IMG/VR virus record: IMGVR_UViG_3300033076_001223 | Span: 1-55,749 of that record | DNA length: 55,749 nucleotides | Reading direction: 5' to 3' (one strand) | Source of the DNA: a virus | Lineage: Duplodnaviria; Caudoviricetes | In this document: piece after piece, positions 6,371-55,749 of the stretch | How the letters are laid out: every line of letters begins with the position of its first letter | Position numbering within the stretch: position 1 is the stretch's first letter | The notes under the pieces: model-generated | What the model was told of the DNA's origin: nothing | Database searches by the model: none | What the model saw: the letters and a program-made list of their open reading frames with translations, nothing else | Made by a program: the position numbers and the translations under genes

Positions 6371-6402
6371 CGGTTCGTCCCTTGCTTCGTTTCAGCTCGA
6401 AC

Positions 6403-6431
6403 ACCCTACGCCTGCAGGCAGGCGCTTGCAA
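6403..6431 (-). promoter_or_regulatory. Early promoter with operator-like palindrome
   Basis: TTGCAA-N17-TAGGGT; spacer CGCCTG-CCTG-CAGGCG. Confidence 0.75.
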
Positions 6432-6583
6432 TAGGCTGGATGCACTTTTTTGTAAAAAAGAACAAGGTACTGGAATTATTGGCTTTTTGGGCTCTAGCAG
6501 CCCAGCAGCCGGGTGCCGGGCCTCGGCGGGGAAGGCCCGCGCCTGCCGGGTAAAAATGGCGGAAATGCTGGGTTTTTTAGGCT

Positions 6584-6632: not shown

Positions 6633-7049
6633 TCAGTAGCAGTACAGGCTGGCGCCGATCATGCGGCAGGTCGATACGCCGCCCGGGTAGGTGGTGCCGC
6701 TCTCGCGCCTCGCGCCGGTGGTCGGCGAGCTGAAGAGGGTGGAGCCGCCGACCTGACGCGACGTCGACCCGTCGCTGAAGTAGGTGGATCCTCCCGCCTG
6801 CCTCGAGCTGGTGCCGTCGCTGTAATAGGTCGAGCCGCCCACCTGACGTGAGGTCGATCCGTCGCTGAAGTACGTCGTGCCGCCCACCTGCCTCGAGCTG
6901 CTGCCGTCGCTGCAGTACGTCGTTCCGCCCACCTGCCGGCAGGACACCTGCGCCGCGGCGCGCGTCGGCGCCAGAGCGATCAGGGCGGCTAGGATCACGG
7001 CGAGGGCCAGCGTCGCGGCCATAATCAGCCGGGCAGTTGCGTTGCGCAT
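6633..7049 (-). CDS. Secreted/periplasmic protein with five 15-aa repeats (moron-like)
   Basis: Signal peptide ending AAA-Q; repeats RQVGG[TS]TY[CFY]SDG[ST][ST]S; own terminator. Confidence 0.8.
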   Translation of the reverse strand: MRNATARLIMAATLALAVILAALIALAPTRAAAQVSCRQVGGTTYCSDGSSSRQVGGTTYFSDGSTSRQVGGSTYYSDGTSSRQAGGSTYFSDGSTSRQVGGSTLFSSPTTGARRESGTTYPGGVSTCRMIGASLYCY

Positions 7050-7159
7050 TGGATCTAAATCTCCCCAGAGTGGATTTGTATAGTAAGGCATTCGCTTGCA
7101 GAAAACAAGGTCAGGTGGCCTTGCAAAAAAGTGCAAGGTGCGTGGGTGAGGGGCCCAGA

Positions 7160-7335
7160 TCGTGCAACCGAATGGTAGCCACCATTTGCAGCATTTGCAC
7201 CGTGTTGCAACGTGGTGCATATCCCACAACACCCCTAATCACGTGCAACACTCCTATAGCCCCTATCTGAAAGTATATAGGGCTATAGGTGTGTTGCACG
7301 TTGGATGTAACAGCTTGTTGCAGCGTTGCGTGATG
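7160..7335. other. Candidate replication origin or pac region
   Basis: Non-coding strand-switch point; ~25-bp inverted repeat (7241-7266 / 7277-7301) around an AT-rich loop; dense TGCA/GTTGCA repeats. Confidence 0.5.

Positions 7336-21346: not shown

Positions 21347-21350
<4 letters not shown>
21027..21350 (+). CDS. Small Zn-binding virion protein, paralog B
   Basis: [11 protein letters not shown]...PGLLVC...DP...LRPD. Confidence 0.75.
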
Positions 21351-23932
<2,582 letters not shown>

Positions 23933-44865: not shown

Positions 44866-46812
44866 TCACTCCTTGCGATATCGGCTGCACTCGAAGCCCG
44901 CAGCGGCCAGTGGCAGGCCCAGCGACCAGCCGGGGCCCTTGGCCATCAGTGCCGACAGGCCCTCTGCGGAGTATGCAGGGTCGTCGGGCGTTTCGGTGAT
45001 CAGCTCGTCGTGAACGTGCAGGCAGACTTCATAGCCCGCCCTGTCGGCCAGCATCATGCCGTGCGCCAGCACGTCACGCGCCGTGGCCTGCACGATGTTC
45101 TCGACGAGCTTGCCGCCGTAGGTCTCGAGCGTCTCCCACTTGCGCGTGTACTGGTTCACGCCGGAGTAGGTGATCTTGTCCTCCTCGTTCTCGCGCGCGT
45201 CGGGATAGCACAGGTAACGCTCTGACGGCAGGCGGATGCGCAGCCAGCCATCCTCCACGTCGATCATCAGATCGCGCACCTTGCGCTTGGCATCGGGTTC
45301 GCGCAGTACCTGCCGCACGGCGTACTCGACGTCGTACCAAAAGGACACGATGCGTGGGTGCGCCTTGCGCCACGCTTTGACGATCGACGTCACCTCGTCC
45401 TCGGCCTTCTCAATGCCGTACAGGCGCGCCATGCTCTGGAAGGCGCCCACGCTGCCCTGATAGCCCAGCGCCAGTTCCATGATCTTGCCAAGCTGGCGCA
45501 TCATGCCGTCGCCGCTCTTCTTGTTTTCGAGCACCTGCTCCGGCGTGACTTTGAATGATCGGCTGTAGGCAAGCACGTACAGATCGTGGCCCACGCCGCG
45601 GTCAAAGTCCGTGAATGCCTTCGTCTTCCAGTCCTCGCCCGCCAGCCAAGCCAGCACGCGCCCCTCGATATTGCTCAGATCGGCCACGACCAGCTTGCGA
45701 CCGGGCGACGCGATCAGGCAGCCGCGCACGGCGGAGGCGCACAGCTCCATGACGTTGCCGACGACCAGATCCTCGGCGTCGGCCTTCATGGCGGCGATGC
45801 CCAGCTCGATCACCGGCTGCTTGAGCGTAGGACGCGGGAGGTTCTGCGGCTGGAACAGGCGCCCGCCCCAGCGCCCAGTGCGAGCCGCGCCGCAGAACTG
45901 CAGCGTGCCGCGCAGGCGGCCATCGGGCGACGTGGCATTGACCAGCACCTTGTACTTGGCCGGGGACGTGGCGCTGGCCTGCTGGCGAATCTCCAGCAAC
46001 TGTCGCACGGCCGGGTCCAGATCGCCCTTGAGAGCCGCCGTCACCGTGCCCTTGGTCATGTCCTCGGGGATGTAGTCGTACTCGCTGGCCAGATAGGACA
46101 GCAGCTTGTCGCGCTGCGTCAGGGAGGCCACGGCCCCGCCCGTGGCGGCCTTGGCGCGCTCGGCCAGATCGGTGCCGGCCTTCGCCGCAGCGCGCAGGGC
46201 GGCGCGCGCCAAATCCAGATCGACGGCGATGCCGCGGTCATTGATGCGTTGGTCCAGCGCCCAGAGATTGCGCTCGGCGAGAGTGCTATTCCAGCTCGGC
46301 AGGCGCTTGTGCACCTCGCGCATGGCCTCGACGTCTAGGCGGGCGTATTCGACAAATTCCGCCCATTCCTCTGGGTGCGTGTCCTCGTTGGCGCGGCGCA
46401 GCTTCATGTTCTTGGGGCGCGGCTTGGTGAAGAGTTGGATAAGCTTCTTGCCGCGCTTGTCCTTGGCCTTGTCGGTCGGAACGCCAAGAATATCGCAGAG
46501 CTGCCCCAAAGAGCCCGGCAGGCCGTGCGCCAAGGCGCGCACCATGGTGTCGTTTATGCGATTTAAAGGTATGAAGACGTTGTTATGCGCTAATATCGTG
46601 CGGTCAAAAGCACTGTTATGAATTACGACAAAGTCGGCTTCATCTACCAGACTTTGTAGAAAATCGTAGGTAGGATACGACACGTCCTGAACAGGATCTT
46701 CGTTCCACGCCCACGTAGCGAGCAGCACTTCCGCATTTTGCGCGTAGGCGTGCGTGCCGTGCGTGATCGGCACGTCGCTGAACGTCTCAAGGTCGAGATA
46801 CAGGGTGGTCAT
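44866..46812 (-). CDS. polA: DNA polymerase family A (APSE-like, Leu762 type)
   Basis: DLET exo I, HNSAFD, DLSNIEGR motif A, RQLGKIMELALGY motif B, VHDE motif C. Confidence 0.95.
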   Translation of the reverse strand: MTTLYLDLETFSDVPITHGTHAYAQNAEVLLATWAWNEDPVQDVSYPTYDFLQSLVDEADFVVIHNSAFDRTILAHNNVFIPLNRINDTMVRALAHGLPGSLGQLCDILGVPTDKAKDKRGKKLIQLFTKPRPKNMKLRRANEDTHPEEWAEFVEYARLDVEAMREVHKRLPSWNSTLAERNLWALDQRINDRGIAVDLDLARAALRAAAKAGTDLAERAKAATGGAVASLTQRDKLLSYLASEYDYIPEDMTKGTVTAALKGDLDPAVRQLLEIRQQASATSPAKYKVLVNATSPDGRLRGTLQFCGAARTGRWGGRLFQPQNLPRPTLKQPVIELGIAAMKADAEDLVVGNVMELCASAVRGCLIASPGRKLVVADLSNIEGRVLAWLAGEDWKTKAFTDFDRGVGHDLYVLAYSRSFKVTPEQVLENKKSGDGMMRQLGKIMELALGYQGSVGAFQSMARLYGIEKAEDEVTSIVKAWRKAHPRIVSFWYDVEYAVRQVLREPDAKRKVRDLMIDVEDGWLRIRLPSERYLCYPDARENEEDKITYSGVNQYTRKWETLETYGGKLVENIVQATARDVLAHGMMLADRAGYEVCLHVHDELITETPDDPAYSAEGLSALMAKGPGWSLGLPLAAAGFECSRYRKE

Positions 46813-46813
46813 C

Positions 46814-46941
46814 GGTTGTCCCAGTTCTCTCCTCCGGTGAGGCGCCCACCACCAGCCTTACAGGGAAGGTGGGACAACCATTCGGAAGGCAGCAAGCGCC
46901 TCGCCGGAGGAGAGACCCCGGCGGCCGCAAAGCCGCCGGGG
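46814..46941 (-). promoter_or_regulatory. Structured cis-regulatory RNA in the polA leader
   Basis: 10-bp hairpin plus 20-bp stem (46826-45/46896-915) whose loop is complementary to the polA RBS. Confidence 0.7.
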
Positions 46942-46947
46942 CTTAGT

Positions 46948-47205
46948 CTAGATCAAATCAAGGCCGATGGCCTGCGCGTAAAGGTCAAGCATCGCCTGAG
47001 CCTCCTTGCGCTTGTCATCGTCCACGCGGCGCAGGGCGACGATCTTGCGGATCGTCTTGGCGTCGAAGCCGTTGCCTTTGGCCTCCGCGTAAACCTCTTT
47101 AATGTCGGTTGCGAGGTCGGCCTTCTCACCTTCGAGACGCTCGATGCGCTCGACGATGCTGCGAAGCTGATCGCCCGCGACGCTGTTGTGCCCCGCGCCC
47201 GCCAT
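46948..47205 (-). CDS. gapR: GapR (DUF2312/UPF0335) nucleoid-associated protein
   Basis: QLRSIVERIERLE.EK..L..DIKEVYAEAKGNGFD.K..R.IV..R. Confidence 0.93.
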   Translation of the reverse strand: MAGAGHNSVAGDQLRSIVERIERLEGEKADLATDIKEVYAEAKGNGFDAKTIRKIVALRRVDDDKRKEAQAMLDLYAQAIGLDLI

Positions 47206-47771
47206 TAGACCAGATCCTCTTCGGCGCTGGCCAGATCGGCGAAGGCGCTGTCGGTGGCCACGCTAGAGCCGCCGAAGTTCTCGCCGTCGTTCGCGAACAT
47301 CACGCCCTGCAGCGTGCAGTTGATGCGCCGGCCCCACTTGTTGTCCTGCGCCCAGATGTCGACAAGAGCGTGGACGTAGCAGCCGGAGTAGATCAGGCTC
47401 TTGATGTCACGCGTGTCGTCCAGCTTGACGTTGGCCTTGTTGTAGACCGTCGGACGGCTCTTGGCGTTGCGCGCCGAGAGGTAGTGCATGCCCTCGAAAC
47501 CGGCATACGTCTCGCCGGACTTCTTGTTGCGGTAGGGTGCCTCAACGAAGGCAATCTTCTTGTCCTCGACGAGCATCTTCAGCACCTCGGGCGCCTTGTC
47601 CTTCCACTGCTCCTTGGCAGCGGCGGCGATGGCGTCCTTGATGGTCTTGGCCTGCTCGGACTTCGGCGGGATGATGAACTTGGCCTGATAGGCTGGCTCG
47701 CCATCACCAAAGGCTTCCGGTTCGGCGAGAGCCGGAAACGAGATACGCACGTTCTTGATACGGATTTGCAT
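47205..47771 (-). CDS. ssDNA-binding protein (DUF2815 / Enc34 type)
   Basis: NVRISFP.L, IYSGCYV, L.GV.F..DGE.FGG; acidic tail. Confidence 0.9.
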   Translation of the reverse strand: MQIRIKNVRISFPALAEPEAFGDGEPAYQAKFIIPPKSEQAKTIKDAIAAAAKEQWKDKAPEVLKMLVEDKKIAFVEAPYRNKKSGETYAGFEGMHYLSARNAKSRPTVYNKANVKLDDTRDIKSLIYSGCYVHALVDIWAQDNKWGRRINCTLQGVMFANDGENFGGSSVATDSAFADLASAEEDLV

Positions 47772-48975: not shown

Positions 48976-49416
48976 TTAATCCTCCATCGCCGCGTTCACG
49001 GCGTCCATCAGGCTGGGATAGTGTGACGCGTCGAGCTGCGACGCGCGCGTGACGTTGTACTTGGCGAGCAACTCCTTCACAGCGTCACGGCCGCACTTGC
49101 CGACCATCTCCAGAACGCGCGGCGCGACTTCGCTGTTGTAATCATAGACGCGTGAAGAGCCCGTCTCCTTGGCCCATCCATTGTCCACCTCGCGGGGCGC
49201 TGTTCCGTCTACGGGCGCAACAGGCTCGTCCTTGACTTCAGGCTGGGGTTCAGGCTGGGGCGGCGGTGCTGCGACTTTGGATGCCGCGACTTCGGCGGCC
49301 TCGATGCGTGGCACGTCAAACGTGCTGGGCAATCCCTTGAGCTGTGACGCCAAGGCGGCGAGCTTGCCCGACAGCTCGTGAATAGTGGGCGCAGTAATTT
49401 CTACGCGGTACGTCAT
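48976..49416 (-). CDS. Conserved replication-module protein preceding DUF2800
   Basis: AAGGGACAACC leader; C-terminal G.DAVK.LL.KY......L....Y. Confidence 0.75.
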   Translation of the reverse strand: MTYRVEITAPTIHELSGKLAALASQLKGLPSTFDVPRIEAAEVAASKVAAPPPQPEPQPEVKDEPVAPVDGTAPREVDNGWAKETGSSRVYDYNSEVAPRVLEMVGKCGRDAVKELLAKYNVTRASQLDASHYPSLMDAVNAAMED

Positions 49417-49442
49417 TTCGGTTGTCCCTTTTCGTTTACAGT

Positions 49443-54650: not shown

Positions 54651-54956
54651 TTAACGATCCGTGACGGTCAGGCGAACGCTGGCGGCGCTGACCTTGGTGT
54701 GTTTTGAAAACCAGCGGCCGTCGATGCCCAGCTCTTCGAGCTTGGCCTGCAGGGCCTTGGGATCGACGCTCTCGCGGCCGGGGATCTCGGCGACGGTGGC
54801 GCTAAACAGCTCGCCCTCGTGGCGGCCGGCGCCCCAGCCCTTGATCTCGTCGGACAGGATCTTGGCCTTCTCCTGCAGGTCGGCGATCTGGGCGTTGATC
54901 TGGCCCAGCCGATCGACGTGGGAAGTGGCGGAAATTTTACGTGCTGCGATGCTCAT
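54651..54956 (-). CDS. Early coiled-coil protein
   Basis: AAGGGACAACC leader; DRLG.I.AQIA.L. Confidence 0.75.
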   Translation of the reverse strand: MSIAARKISATSHVDRLGQINAQIADLQEKAKILSDEIKGWGAGRHEGELFSATVAEIPGRESVDPKALQAKLEELGIDGRWFSKHTKVSAASVRLTVTDR

Positions 54957-54982
54957 GGTGGTTGTCCCTTTGTGATTGACGG

Positions 54983-55156: not shown

Positions 55157-55182
55157 GGTGATTGTCCCTTTTCGGTTGGTGA

Positions 55183-55342: not shown

Positions 55343-55576
55343 TTACCAAGCCTTCTTGTCGCCAGAGGCCTCGTTGTCGGCCCAACCAGCGGCGTAGGCG
55401 GCCAGCTCGACGGGGGTCATGCCCTCGGCGCCGATGCGCAGGCCCTTGCCCGTGCCGCCCGTCCAGTAGTGCGGCTCGAAGGGGCGGCCGTAGTAGTTGT
55501 CGGCGCTGCCACGGTCGAAGGGGCCGCCGTGGCGGGCGTCAATGGCGGCGGGGTGGATGGTCAAGGTGGCGGTCAT
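55343..55576 (-). CDS. Conserved early phage protein (HGGPFDRGSAD.YYGR type)
   Basis: AAGGGACAACC leader and own promoter; 5' part duplicated at 1-101. Confidence 0.8.
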   Translation of the reverse strand: MTATLTIHPAAIDARHGGPFDRGSADNYYGRPFEPHYWTGGTGKGLRIGAEGMTPVELAAYAAGWADNEASGDKKAW

Positions 55577-55749
55577 GTCGGTTGTCCCTTGGTTTCAAAT
55601 CAGTGAACTAAGGATAGGCCTGCAATCGGACAGTTGCAATAGGGTACATGCAAAAAAGTGCAAGTTAGCCCAACTATTTTATAAGTCACTGATTTCCTTG
55701 GTTTTCTTCCGACCAGCGCCGGGCCAGATCCTTGGCGTTTTCGAGCTTG
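55476..55749. repeat. Terminal overlap, right copy
   Basis: Matches 1-274 with 10 SNPs. Confidence 0.95.

Follow-up and report, generated by a model that had tools for sequence, protein, structure and literature searches.

Background

What does a long hairpin do in the spacer between a gapR-like gene and the gene of a family A DNA polymerase (polA), if its loop is antisense to the start region of polA and to the leaders of other genes of the same phage? This question is raised by a viral contig of 55,749 bp (from here: the window, i.e. the whole stretch of DNA that was analysed). Most antisense RNAs known from phages protect lysogeny and have a single operon as their target. In this study, we describe the structure of the hairpin, its distribution and conservation among related viral loci, and the relation of its apical region to the messages of the own genome. 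The best reading of these sequence relations is that of a leader-embedded phage antisense RNA, belonging to a large uncurated family, with co-varying targets at multiple genes.

Results

The hairpin and its genomic context

The minus strand of the window carries a replication module in the order primase-helicase, PD-(D/E)XK/DUF2800 nuclease, Enc34-type SSB, GapR-like protein, family A DNA polymerase and SNF2 helicase. The spacer between gapR and polA has a length of 135 nt and houses the hairpin P0, the long stem P1 with its apical loop, and the sequence complementary to this loop, called own target from here on (Table 1). Elsewhere in the window, the 861-aa ORF at 21347-23932 (plus strand) contains runs of 9-nt-periodic repeats of the GGC-CCN-ACN type at 22094-23503, translating into collagen-like Gly-X-Y, and probably encodes a tail fibre. 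Four direct repeats with a spacing of 45 nt and 63-82% alike are located at 6729-6953 within the minus-strand ORF 6633-7232, and a 22-nt inverted repeat (95% complementary, 17-nt spacer) occupies positions 7241-7301 between divergent ORFs at the early/late boundary.

The initial annotation had described a 10-bp hairpin followed by a 20-bp stem with one C-A mismatch. Both are present, and beyond chance: the fold of 151 nt had a minimum free energy (MFE) of -87.1 kcal/mol (z = -6.9), and none of 200 shuffled sequences was as stable. The Watson-Crick core of P0 comprises 10 bp, from C46941-G46916 to C46932-G46925, and P1 consists in the window of 20 positions with the single mismatch C46903.A46838. 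The extension of this stem by GCCUU/AAGGC, proposed in addition, is merely one among several weak apical alternatives, and the MFE structure extends the stem differently. The GGAGGAG sequence, 18 nt from the polA ATG, is buried in P1 with a probability of being unpaired of 0.00; the mean of this probability in the window was 0.65 for the loop motif and 0.64 for the target. A scan for intrinsic terminators in the region 46500-47300 and in two relatives yielded no terminator-like site. P0 was not called, and its pyrimidine-rich tail has too few T under the rule of the terminator scan. P0 may be read as a terminator or as a 5′ stem-loop.

Table 1 Features of the window that are relevant to the gapR-polA leader and its candidate targets
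Feature	Position	Strand	Remarks
Window			55,749-bp viral contig
Direct repeats at the contig ends	1-274 / 55476-55749		274 bp, 96% alike (not 100%)
gapR-like gene	46948-47205	minus	85 aa; Pfam GapR_DNA-bd, E 5.6e-32; directly upstream of the hairpin element
P0, GC-rich hairpin	46942-46931 with 46926-46915	minus	10 Watson-Crick pairs and 2 G.U, 4-nt loop; right after the gapR stop codon
P1, 5′ arm	46915-46896	minus	pyrimidine-rich; invariant GG 46905-46904, never-paired C46903, invariant G46902
P1, apical region	46895-46846	minus	includes the loop GGUUGUCCCA at 46879-46870, antisense to the shared start-region motif
P1, 3′ arm	46845-46826	minus	purine-rich; A46838 opposite C46903, invariant CC 46837-46836, GGAGGAG 46835-46829
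Own target	46823-46814	minus	UGGGACAACC; separated by a single G from the start codon of polA (46812-46810)
Family A DNA polymerase gene (polA)	44866-46812	minus	648 aa; Pfam DNA_pol_A and DNA_pol_A_exo1; downstream of the element
Candidate trans target	55574-55588	minus	GGGACAACC, 3 nt, ATG of a 77-aa ORF (without a family in Pfam or PHROG) that comes first behind a promoter-like repeat; second copy at 99-113, within the end repeat
Candidate trans target	54954-54969	minus	GGGACAACCA, 10 nt complementary to the loop, then ATG of a 101-aa ORF
Candidate trans target	49414-49428	minus	GGGACAACC, 3 nt, ATG of a 146-aa ORF in the replication module; phrog_408, unknown function
Candidate trans target	867-881	minus	GGGACAACC, 3 nt, ATG of a 149-aa ORF, first after a promoter-like repeat; phrog_22149, unknown function
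Promoter-like repeat and shared leader, repeat family D6	55579-55645	minus	TTGCAA, 17 nt, TAnnnT, about 30 nt ending in the motif
Further D6 copies	872-938; 104-170; 6371-6437	minus	104-170 in the end repeat; 6371-6437 more diverged

Distribution and conservation of the hairpin

For the analysis of its distribution, 80 viral loci encoding a polA relative at 55-87% identity were surveyed. A covariance model was built from 34 leaders and matched 66 of the 80 loci at E ≤ 1e-15, 30 of them outside the training set. The remaining 14 loci gave two weak matches and 12 times none, with some of these 12 being short of upstream DNA. Of the 60 loci with enough flank, 59 have a GapR homolog that ends at most 120 nt before the start of the hairpin. 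The hairpin adjoins polA in 34 of the 66 matched loci and the start of an intervening ORF in the other 32. The element therefore belongs to the 3′ side of gapR and not to polA as such. The intervening ORFs are of several kinds (L015, L026, L042-L048, L051, L053, L058, L060, L066, L071-L083 and others); one kind has a conserved C-terminal tail, ...RVSEILHGKR, and a short remnant of this type of ORF exists in L068 and L076.

The P1 stem is strongly conserved as a structure. Among 34 distinct leaders, 94.2% of the alignment cells of P1 were paired, with two-sided changes in 18 of the 23 pairs, and none out of 500 shuffles scored as high; controls with slid registers were paired to 44-57%. Compensatory support for 17 of 22 P1 pairs was found by RNAalifold. 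On the polA-sense strand, 54 G.U pairs were counted in P1 versus nine A.C pairs. This excess fits an RNA that is read in the polA sense, an argument that is not airtight because the conserved C.A is a G.U on the other strand.

A match in Rfam would have removed the novelty of the element according to the initial annotation, and no Rfam family was matched at the gathering score, neither in the window nor in the loci of 10 relatives. Sub-threshold matches numbered 14 within positions 46700-47050 at E ≤ 10, the best of which were models of microRNA precursors, i.e. generic long hairpins. No description of this element was found in a literature search. These observations support the view that the leader is a real, conserved structured RNA from a large family lacking an Rfam entry. 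Because it is large, strongly covarying and without such an entry, the family is ready for curation.

In bacterial genomes, the model matched two of 80 polA-relative loci strongly and three weakly, so few that no host can be named. The phages among which the element appears to be widespread form an uncultured and probably alphaproteobacterial group. Judged by polA (65% identity), the nearest relative in culture is Caulobacter phage RW (L005/L118), which had no match to the covariance model; its gapR-polA spacer contains a much reduced hairpin with a 5-bp remnant of P1. In this phage the order gapR-hairpin-polA is kept, polA is split in two matching pieces and a start-region tag of the GGAGAC type is found on many early genes.

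In most relatives, a conserved promoter-like sequence of the type TTGGCN, 17 nt, (C)TATAG/TATAAG is located within the 40-50 nt that precede P1 (e.g. L041:1338-1366). It overlaps the last codons of gapR and ends a few nt before P0. This type of site was called by the scan in L041 (9 of 12), not in L017, and it was not evident in the clade of the window. Because the promoter-like site ends just before P0, P0-P1 may be the 5′ end of a transcript of its own.

The loop and the start-region tag in the window

According to the initial annotation, a loop 10-mer is perfectly complementary to the 10 nt in front of the polA start codon, and both the coordinates and the pairing could be verified. A perfect complement of at least 10 nt between apical and start region was obtained with only 0.05% of shuffled start regions. 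The motif GGGACAACC within this complementarity occurs in seven exact copies in the window, compared to 0.35 expected copies, a number reached by none of 100 shuffles. Of these, six lie on the minus strand and are followed by an ATG at a distance of 1-3 nt, and the remaining one, the sole inverted copy, is the loop itself. Since the copies at 105 and 55580 sit in the 274-bp end repeat, these numbers translate into four distinct tagged genes in addition to polA, in agreement with the earlier count of at least four other genes with matching leaders. None of these four small ORFs belongs to a known family. Near-copies of the tag exist at 55160-55168 and 6372-6381; when one mismatch was allowed, the window contained 14 copies against 11.2 expected, no excess over chance.

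Two of the four tagged genes are preceded by the promoter-like repeat and a common leader of about 30 nt, and the diverged copy at 6371-6437 precedes the near-copy of the tag at 6372. As the contig ends are direct repeats, there are two copies of the early promoter-like repeat and likewise of the first gene with the tag. The promoter-like repeats are putative promoters; a sigma-70 scan called none of those in the window.

The clade of the window comprises six sequences, in which the loop and the target are invariant and the flanks vary, with TGGTTGTCCCA as the longest invariant apical block across all six. This invariance shows constraint, not covariation. Just one contig of this clade is long enough to display the other targets. 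A scan of viral contigs for the tag pattern yielded 117 stretches, nearly all of them lone chance matches. In L125, a related viral fragment of 22 kb, five consecutive small genes are each preceded by AAAGGGACAACC, and one of these tagged genes follows a promoter-like site and a leader beginning with AUCAGCGAC. Hence, the tag of the window and the leader motif of its relatives can co-occur. No hairpin was found in the covered part of this fragment.

Complementarity between the tip and the start region downstream

We compared the apical tip with the start region of the respective downstream gene in 57 distinct leaders. A complement of at least 8 nt was present in 28 of them, of at least 9 nt in 27 and of at least 10 nt in 16, while at least 8 nt were reached by 0.7% of shuffled start regions. 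The complementary segments belong to at least five different sequence pairs, and the complementarity persists when the downstream gene is not polA. In the other 29 leaders it is restricted to 4-7 nt, mostly the Shine-Dalgarno core. RNAduplex predictions for the tip and its own start region gave P values of 0.003-0.85 across 34 leaders when compared with mononucleotide shuffles, a test that is too insensitive. Together, the sequence comparisons support the view that the complementarity between loop and start region is selected. The covariation of loop and RBS that the initial annotation had asked for is thus seen in the form of several different pairs across the 57 leaders, and not among the six sequences of the window clade.

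The initial annotation had also suggested that the loop and its target form an H-type pseudoknot that occludes the RBS. The loop is placed above approximately 26 stacked pairs, a linker of 2 nt connects the stem to the target, and an alternative nested fold with the 10-bp helix of loop and target was predicted at -70.1 kcal/mol versus -87.8 kcal/mol, i.e. 17.7 kcal/mol worse. Because of this separation, the 2-nt linker and the cost of about 18 kcal/mol, such a pseudoknot is unlikely within one molecule; pairing of loop and target would therefore take place between molecules or after the opening or cleavage of P1. In most relatives, moreover, the 3′ base of P1 is the Shine-Dalgarno sequence of the downstream gene.

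Complementarity between the tip and the leaders of other genes

The apical regions of 15 genomes (the window and the contigs of 14 relatives) were compared with the upstream regions, from -40 to +6, of the genes in the same genome. Using a candidate start list that is crude, with about 150-220 starts per genome, 54 sites in these upstream windows were found to be perfectly complementary to the own tip over 9 nt or more, compared with 10.8 for shuffled tips (sd 3.8, maximum 31 in 1000), and 51 of the 54 were co-oriented with polA. The P values for enrichment in individual genomes were between 0.000 and 0.07 in 10 genomes and above 0.1 in five. Recurrent upstream 8-mers were furthermore collected blind to the hairpin; 15 of the 379 were complementary to the own tip, as opposed to none in the same-sense control and one in the reversed control. 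Counted genome-wide at any position, there were 135 complementary 9-mers in sense and 107 in antisense orientation, which is not significant overall and swamped by GC-rich chance matches in coding sequences.

The tip of most relatives is composed of two modules, one for the 5′ end of leaders and one for the Shine-Dalgarno and start region, which are ordered and spaced as in an antisense leader. The target of the leader-5′ module starts 6-8 nt after the -10-like element of promoter-like repeats and presumably represents the first bases of those transcripts, whose starts are predicted from the sequence. The second module, usually the loop of a small inner hairpin, complements the Shine-Dalgarno sequence and the start-region tag. 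The window phage possesses the second module alone, with GGUUGUCCCA facing (A/U)GGGACAACC. Variants of the leader-5′ target are accompanied by matching variants of the tip: AUCAGCAAC occurs with GUUGCUGAU (7 genomes), GUCAGCAAC with GUUGCUGAC, AUCAAGCAA with UUGCUUGAU and ACCAACAAC with GUUGUUGGU. Likewise, the start-region target GGGACAACC is found with the tip GGUUGUCCC in the window, AGGAGUACCA with UGGUACUCCU at 10 genes in one genome, and GGAGGGACACC with GGUGUCCCUCC. In sum, four compensating variants of one module and three of the other are matched by changes in the loop. At one target, the complementarity to the tip extends over 19 nt. The tip thus represents an antisense version of the phage's own standard leader and changes along with it.

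The extent of this relation is not uniform. GGGACAAC is not recurrent in five other relatives, and in five relatives no gene except the downstream one carries the own-target motif TATCAGCATG. Because the former is unshared in five relatives and the latter is gene-unique in another clade, the putative regulon size differs between lineages. Of the initial proposals, the speculative one of silencing early mRNAs in trans receives the strongest support: across 15 genomes, the tip is antisense to recurrent motifs of its own genome and changes jointly with them. Repression would be the putative effect.

Other roles of the inverted leader were considered. The opposite strand was inspected in the window and in L041 and L050; it lacks a promoter-like repeat as well as a suitably placed start codon after the inverted leader, and an opposite-strand promoter or small ORF behind it was rejected on these grounds. 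The idea of the tip as a mimic of the 16S rRNA 3′ end was dropped.

A candidate processing signature in P1

The core of P1 (46902-46905 with 46836-46839 in the window; columns 24-27 and 107-110 of alignment A4) is fixed in 57 distinct leaders: its GG/CC pairs are invariant except for one G.U at the second pair, and so is the G that follows GG and the mismatch. The juxtaposed positions between GG/CC and this G never form a Watson-Crick pair (C.A 41, U.U 13, C.C 2, C.U 1). In model hairpin substrates, bacterial RNase P reads N(-1), G(+1), N73, C74 and C75, as described in sections of PMC4919922 and PMC11143913. The P1 core of GG/CC, mismatch and G-C could therefore be a candidate RNase P-like site, with a compatible sequence signature. 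The third base after the discriminator-like position is an A in only 21 of the 57 leaders, and ARAGORN detected no tRNA-like gene. RNase III sites comprise about two helical turns (at least 20 bp). P1 offers 20 positions in the window, one of them mismatched, and 23 covarying pairs across the family, a length that suffices for this enzyme; cleavage by it would be a putative step.

Discussion

Proposed mechanism and alternative explanations

As the best reading of these data, for which we see the chances as evenly balanced, the element would function as an embedded antisense RNA, or "anti-leader", that pairs in trans with many phage messages, its own included, and represses them. This reading starts from the observed structure, its conservation, the complementarities and their co-variation. 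The 23-pair stem P1 would hold up the apical region as an antisense copy of the standard mRNA leader. After transcription of the replication operon, the tip, being exposed, would pair between molecules with leaders or start regions of these messages, the message of the downstream gene among them, so that ribosome binding would be blocked and decay of the early set probably hastened. The tip could act in either form, inside the mRNA or after excision. In most relatives there would be a second, cis-acting layer, in which the base of P1 sequesters the Shine-Dalgarno sequence of the gene that follows. The early promoter-like repeats are on the same strand, about 9 kb upstream of the element, a distance that could make it a delay timer. 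The same reading predicts that the element is transcribed, that pairing in trans occurs in vivo, that repression is the direction of the effect, and that processing may take place. An extended form of it can be put forward tentatively and with more doubt than confidence: a master antisense RNA that would be made when transcription reaches the replication module, be excised by RNase P at a tRNA-acceptor-like site (N-1, G+1, N73, CC), silence the whole early set via the shared tag and co-evolve with this tag in each lineage.

Several alternatives have to be weighed against the anti-leader. A purely cis-acting intercistronic attenuator, in which P0 and P1 bury the Shine-Dalgarno sequence of the downstream replication gene and in this way lower its expression and uncouple it from that of the abundant GapR-like protein, is in our view rather unlikely. 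Here, the start region of the same message would be the sole partner of the tip, reached either in another copy of the message or once the stem is opened, and the other matches would reflect shared motifs. This would explain the Shine-Dalgarno sequence at the 3′ base of P1 in most relatives, the covarying own-target complement of at least 8 nt in 28 of the 57 leaders, the own-target motif that is gene-unique in five relatives, and the joint movement of hairpin and start region before different genes. What it leaves aside is the leader-5′ module (GUUGCUGAU and three variants), which matches motifs 15-25 nt upstream of the starts of other genes. Moreover, the tip matches other genes only, and not the downstream gene, in four genomes (G011, G015, G016 and G017), the P2 loop of one genome matches 10 other genes and not its own downstream gene, and pairing within one molecule is disfavoured both sterically and energetically. 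We consider it improbable that the element serves RNA processing or stability only, P1 being an RNase III site of the T7/lambda type or an RNase P site that splits the gapR and polA messages, with a tip that has no role in pairing. The tracking of each phage's leader motifs by the tip would then be unexplained, even though the P1 helix of at least 20 bp as well as the invariant GG/CC, the invariant G and the non-Watson-Crick positions between them would suit such a function, the latter three fitting RNase P determinants given in parts of PMC4919922 and PMC11143913. Against an RNase P site also speak the presence of A at the third base in just 21 of 57 leaders, the pairing of CC to GG with a clamp of about 10 further pairs, and the lack of a tRNA-like gene in the ARAGORN result. 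Processing is compatible with the anti-leader reading rather than a true rival to it.

The two remaining explanations carry much less weight. An element acting at the DNA level, with the inverted leader motifs as protein operator, origin or cruciform, would be equal in both orientations as a double-stranded site; one target motif indeed adjoins promoter-like repeats, and the conserved C.A becomes a G.U on the opposite strand. Such an element is very improbable, considering that the start-region motifs have a single orientation and a fixed distance of 1-6 nt to start codons, including those of genes that lack promoter-like repeats, that the sole inverted copy is in the hairpin, that sense-strand G.U pairs are scattered through P1 (54 versus 9 A.C), and that both modules are ordered and spaced as an antisense leader. 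The initial annotation drew an analogy to the autoregulation of T4 gp43 and gp32, in which case polymerase or SSB would bind the leader as an autogenous operator. The position in the replication module near the genes for the Enc34-type SSB and polA and the conserved sequence of lower P1 are in line with this, but the downstream gene is not polA in 32 of the 66 loci, and the features of the T4 operators as given in sections of PMC3014915 (short tetraloop hairpin; pseudoknot plus A+U-rich tract) are absent here. The analogy fails on anatomy as well as on the loci without adjoining polA, and we attach hardly any probability to it.

For genomes of uncultured phages, the co-varying pairs of loop and tag could assist in the prediction of promoters and early regulons, and the invariant core of GG/CC, mismatch and G-C offers a specific candidate processing site.

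Comparison with known systems

Early-gene RNase III hairpins of T7 are long and intercistronic, have a conserved internal mismatch and can pair with a nearby ribosome-binding site. The element described here is built likewise, and it has sequences that could pair with a nearby ribosome-binding site as well. To our knowledge, the T7 sites are not antisense to a shared leader. The T4 operators mentioned above are of a different build. Sections of PMC3014915 describe the gene 32 leader as a compact pseudoknot far upstream, followed by an unstructured A+U-rich tract with cooperative SSB binding, whereas the leader studied here is GC-rich and, by prediction, P1 and the pairing of its loop with the target exclude each other within a single molecule. 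The gene 43 operator is a hairpin of 16-18 nt with a conserved tetraloop, located about 40 nt upstream, overlapping the RBS and bound by the polymerase (PMC3014915, in part); our element differs by its stem of 23 pairs, an apical region of about 50 nt and non-polymerase genes downstream in 32 of 66 loci.

OOP RNA of lambda directs the RNase III-dependent decay of cII mRNA (PMC12197685, in part), and it resembles the element in being a phage RNA that pairs with a phage message, as we propose here. However, RNAs of the OOP type are cis-antisense RNAs from the opposite strand with long complementarity, while the element is sense-oriented, situated in an mRNA leader and equipped with seeds of 9-19 nt. 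With RegA of T4, a protein from the replication gene cluster that shuts off many early messages at sites overlapping the AUG or just 5′ of it (PMC3014915, in part), it would share the principle of a single regulator from the replication genes addressing many early messages. RegA is a protein with loose A+U-rich sites; the element is a candidate RNA regulator with sequence-specific, co-varying targets. If the anti-leader reading is true, one RNA from a replication leader would address many early messages via a shared tag, as a simple early-to-middle timer made of RNA. In the extended form of this reading, the element would be an RNA counterpart of RegA.

The immunity RNA CI of P4 and its kin are derived from a leader, too, and contain a short segment for which several complementary partners exist in the transcripts of that promoter region. 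By description, CI acts on transcription termination in prophage immunity, whereas the candidate targets of the element are start regions and leader 5′ ends in several operons. The most similar arrangement is that of c4 of P1 and P7 (Rfam C4, RF01695), an antisense RNA matured by RNase P and encoded in the leader of a transcript that contains its target, too; short exposed segments of it pair with the downstream ribosome-binding region. As in c4, the element and the ribosome-binding region that it complements share a strand, the element being the upstream one; this holds for the window and, with complements of 8 nt or more, for 28 of 57 leaders. c4 has two exposed segments for two short target segments; the relatives have two modules that may correspond to them, the window one. 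The signature of GG/CC, an unpaired Y.W and G-C could play the part of the RNase P site. The C4 covariance model did not match, nor was it among the 14 sub-threshold matches at E ≤ 10 within 46700-47050. Differences also exist in the architecture, a 23-pair clamp stem compared to a small multi-hairpin RNA, and in the location, after gapR in a replication module compared to an immunity/antirepressor operon. By analogy, c4 is the closest of the known systems, and the element appears to share its logic without being a member of the c4 family: where c4 addresses one operon, the leader RNA described here has many candidate targets, at up to 10 genes.
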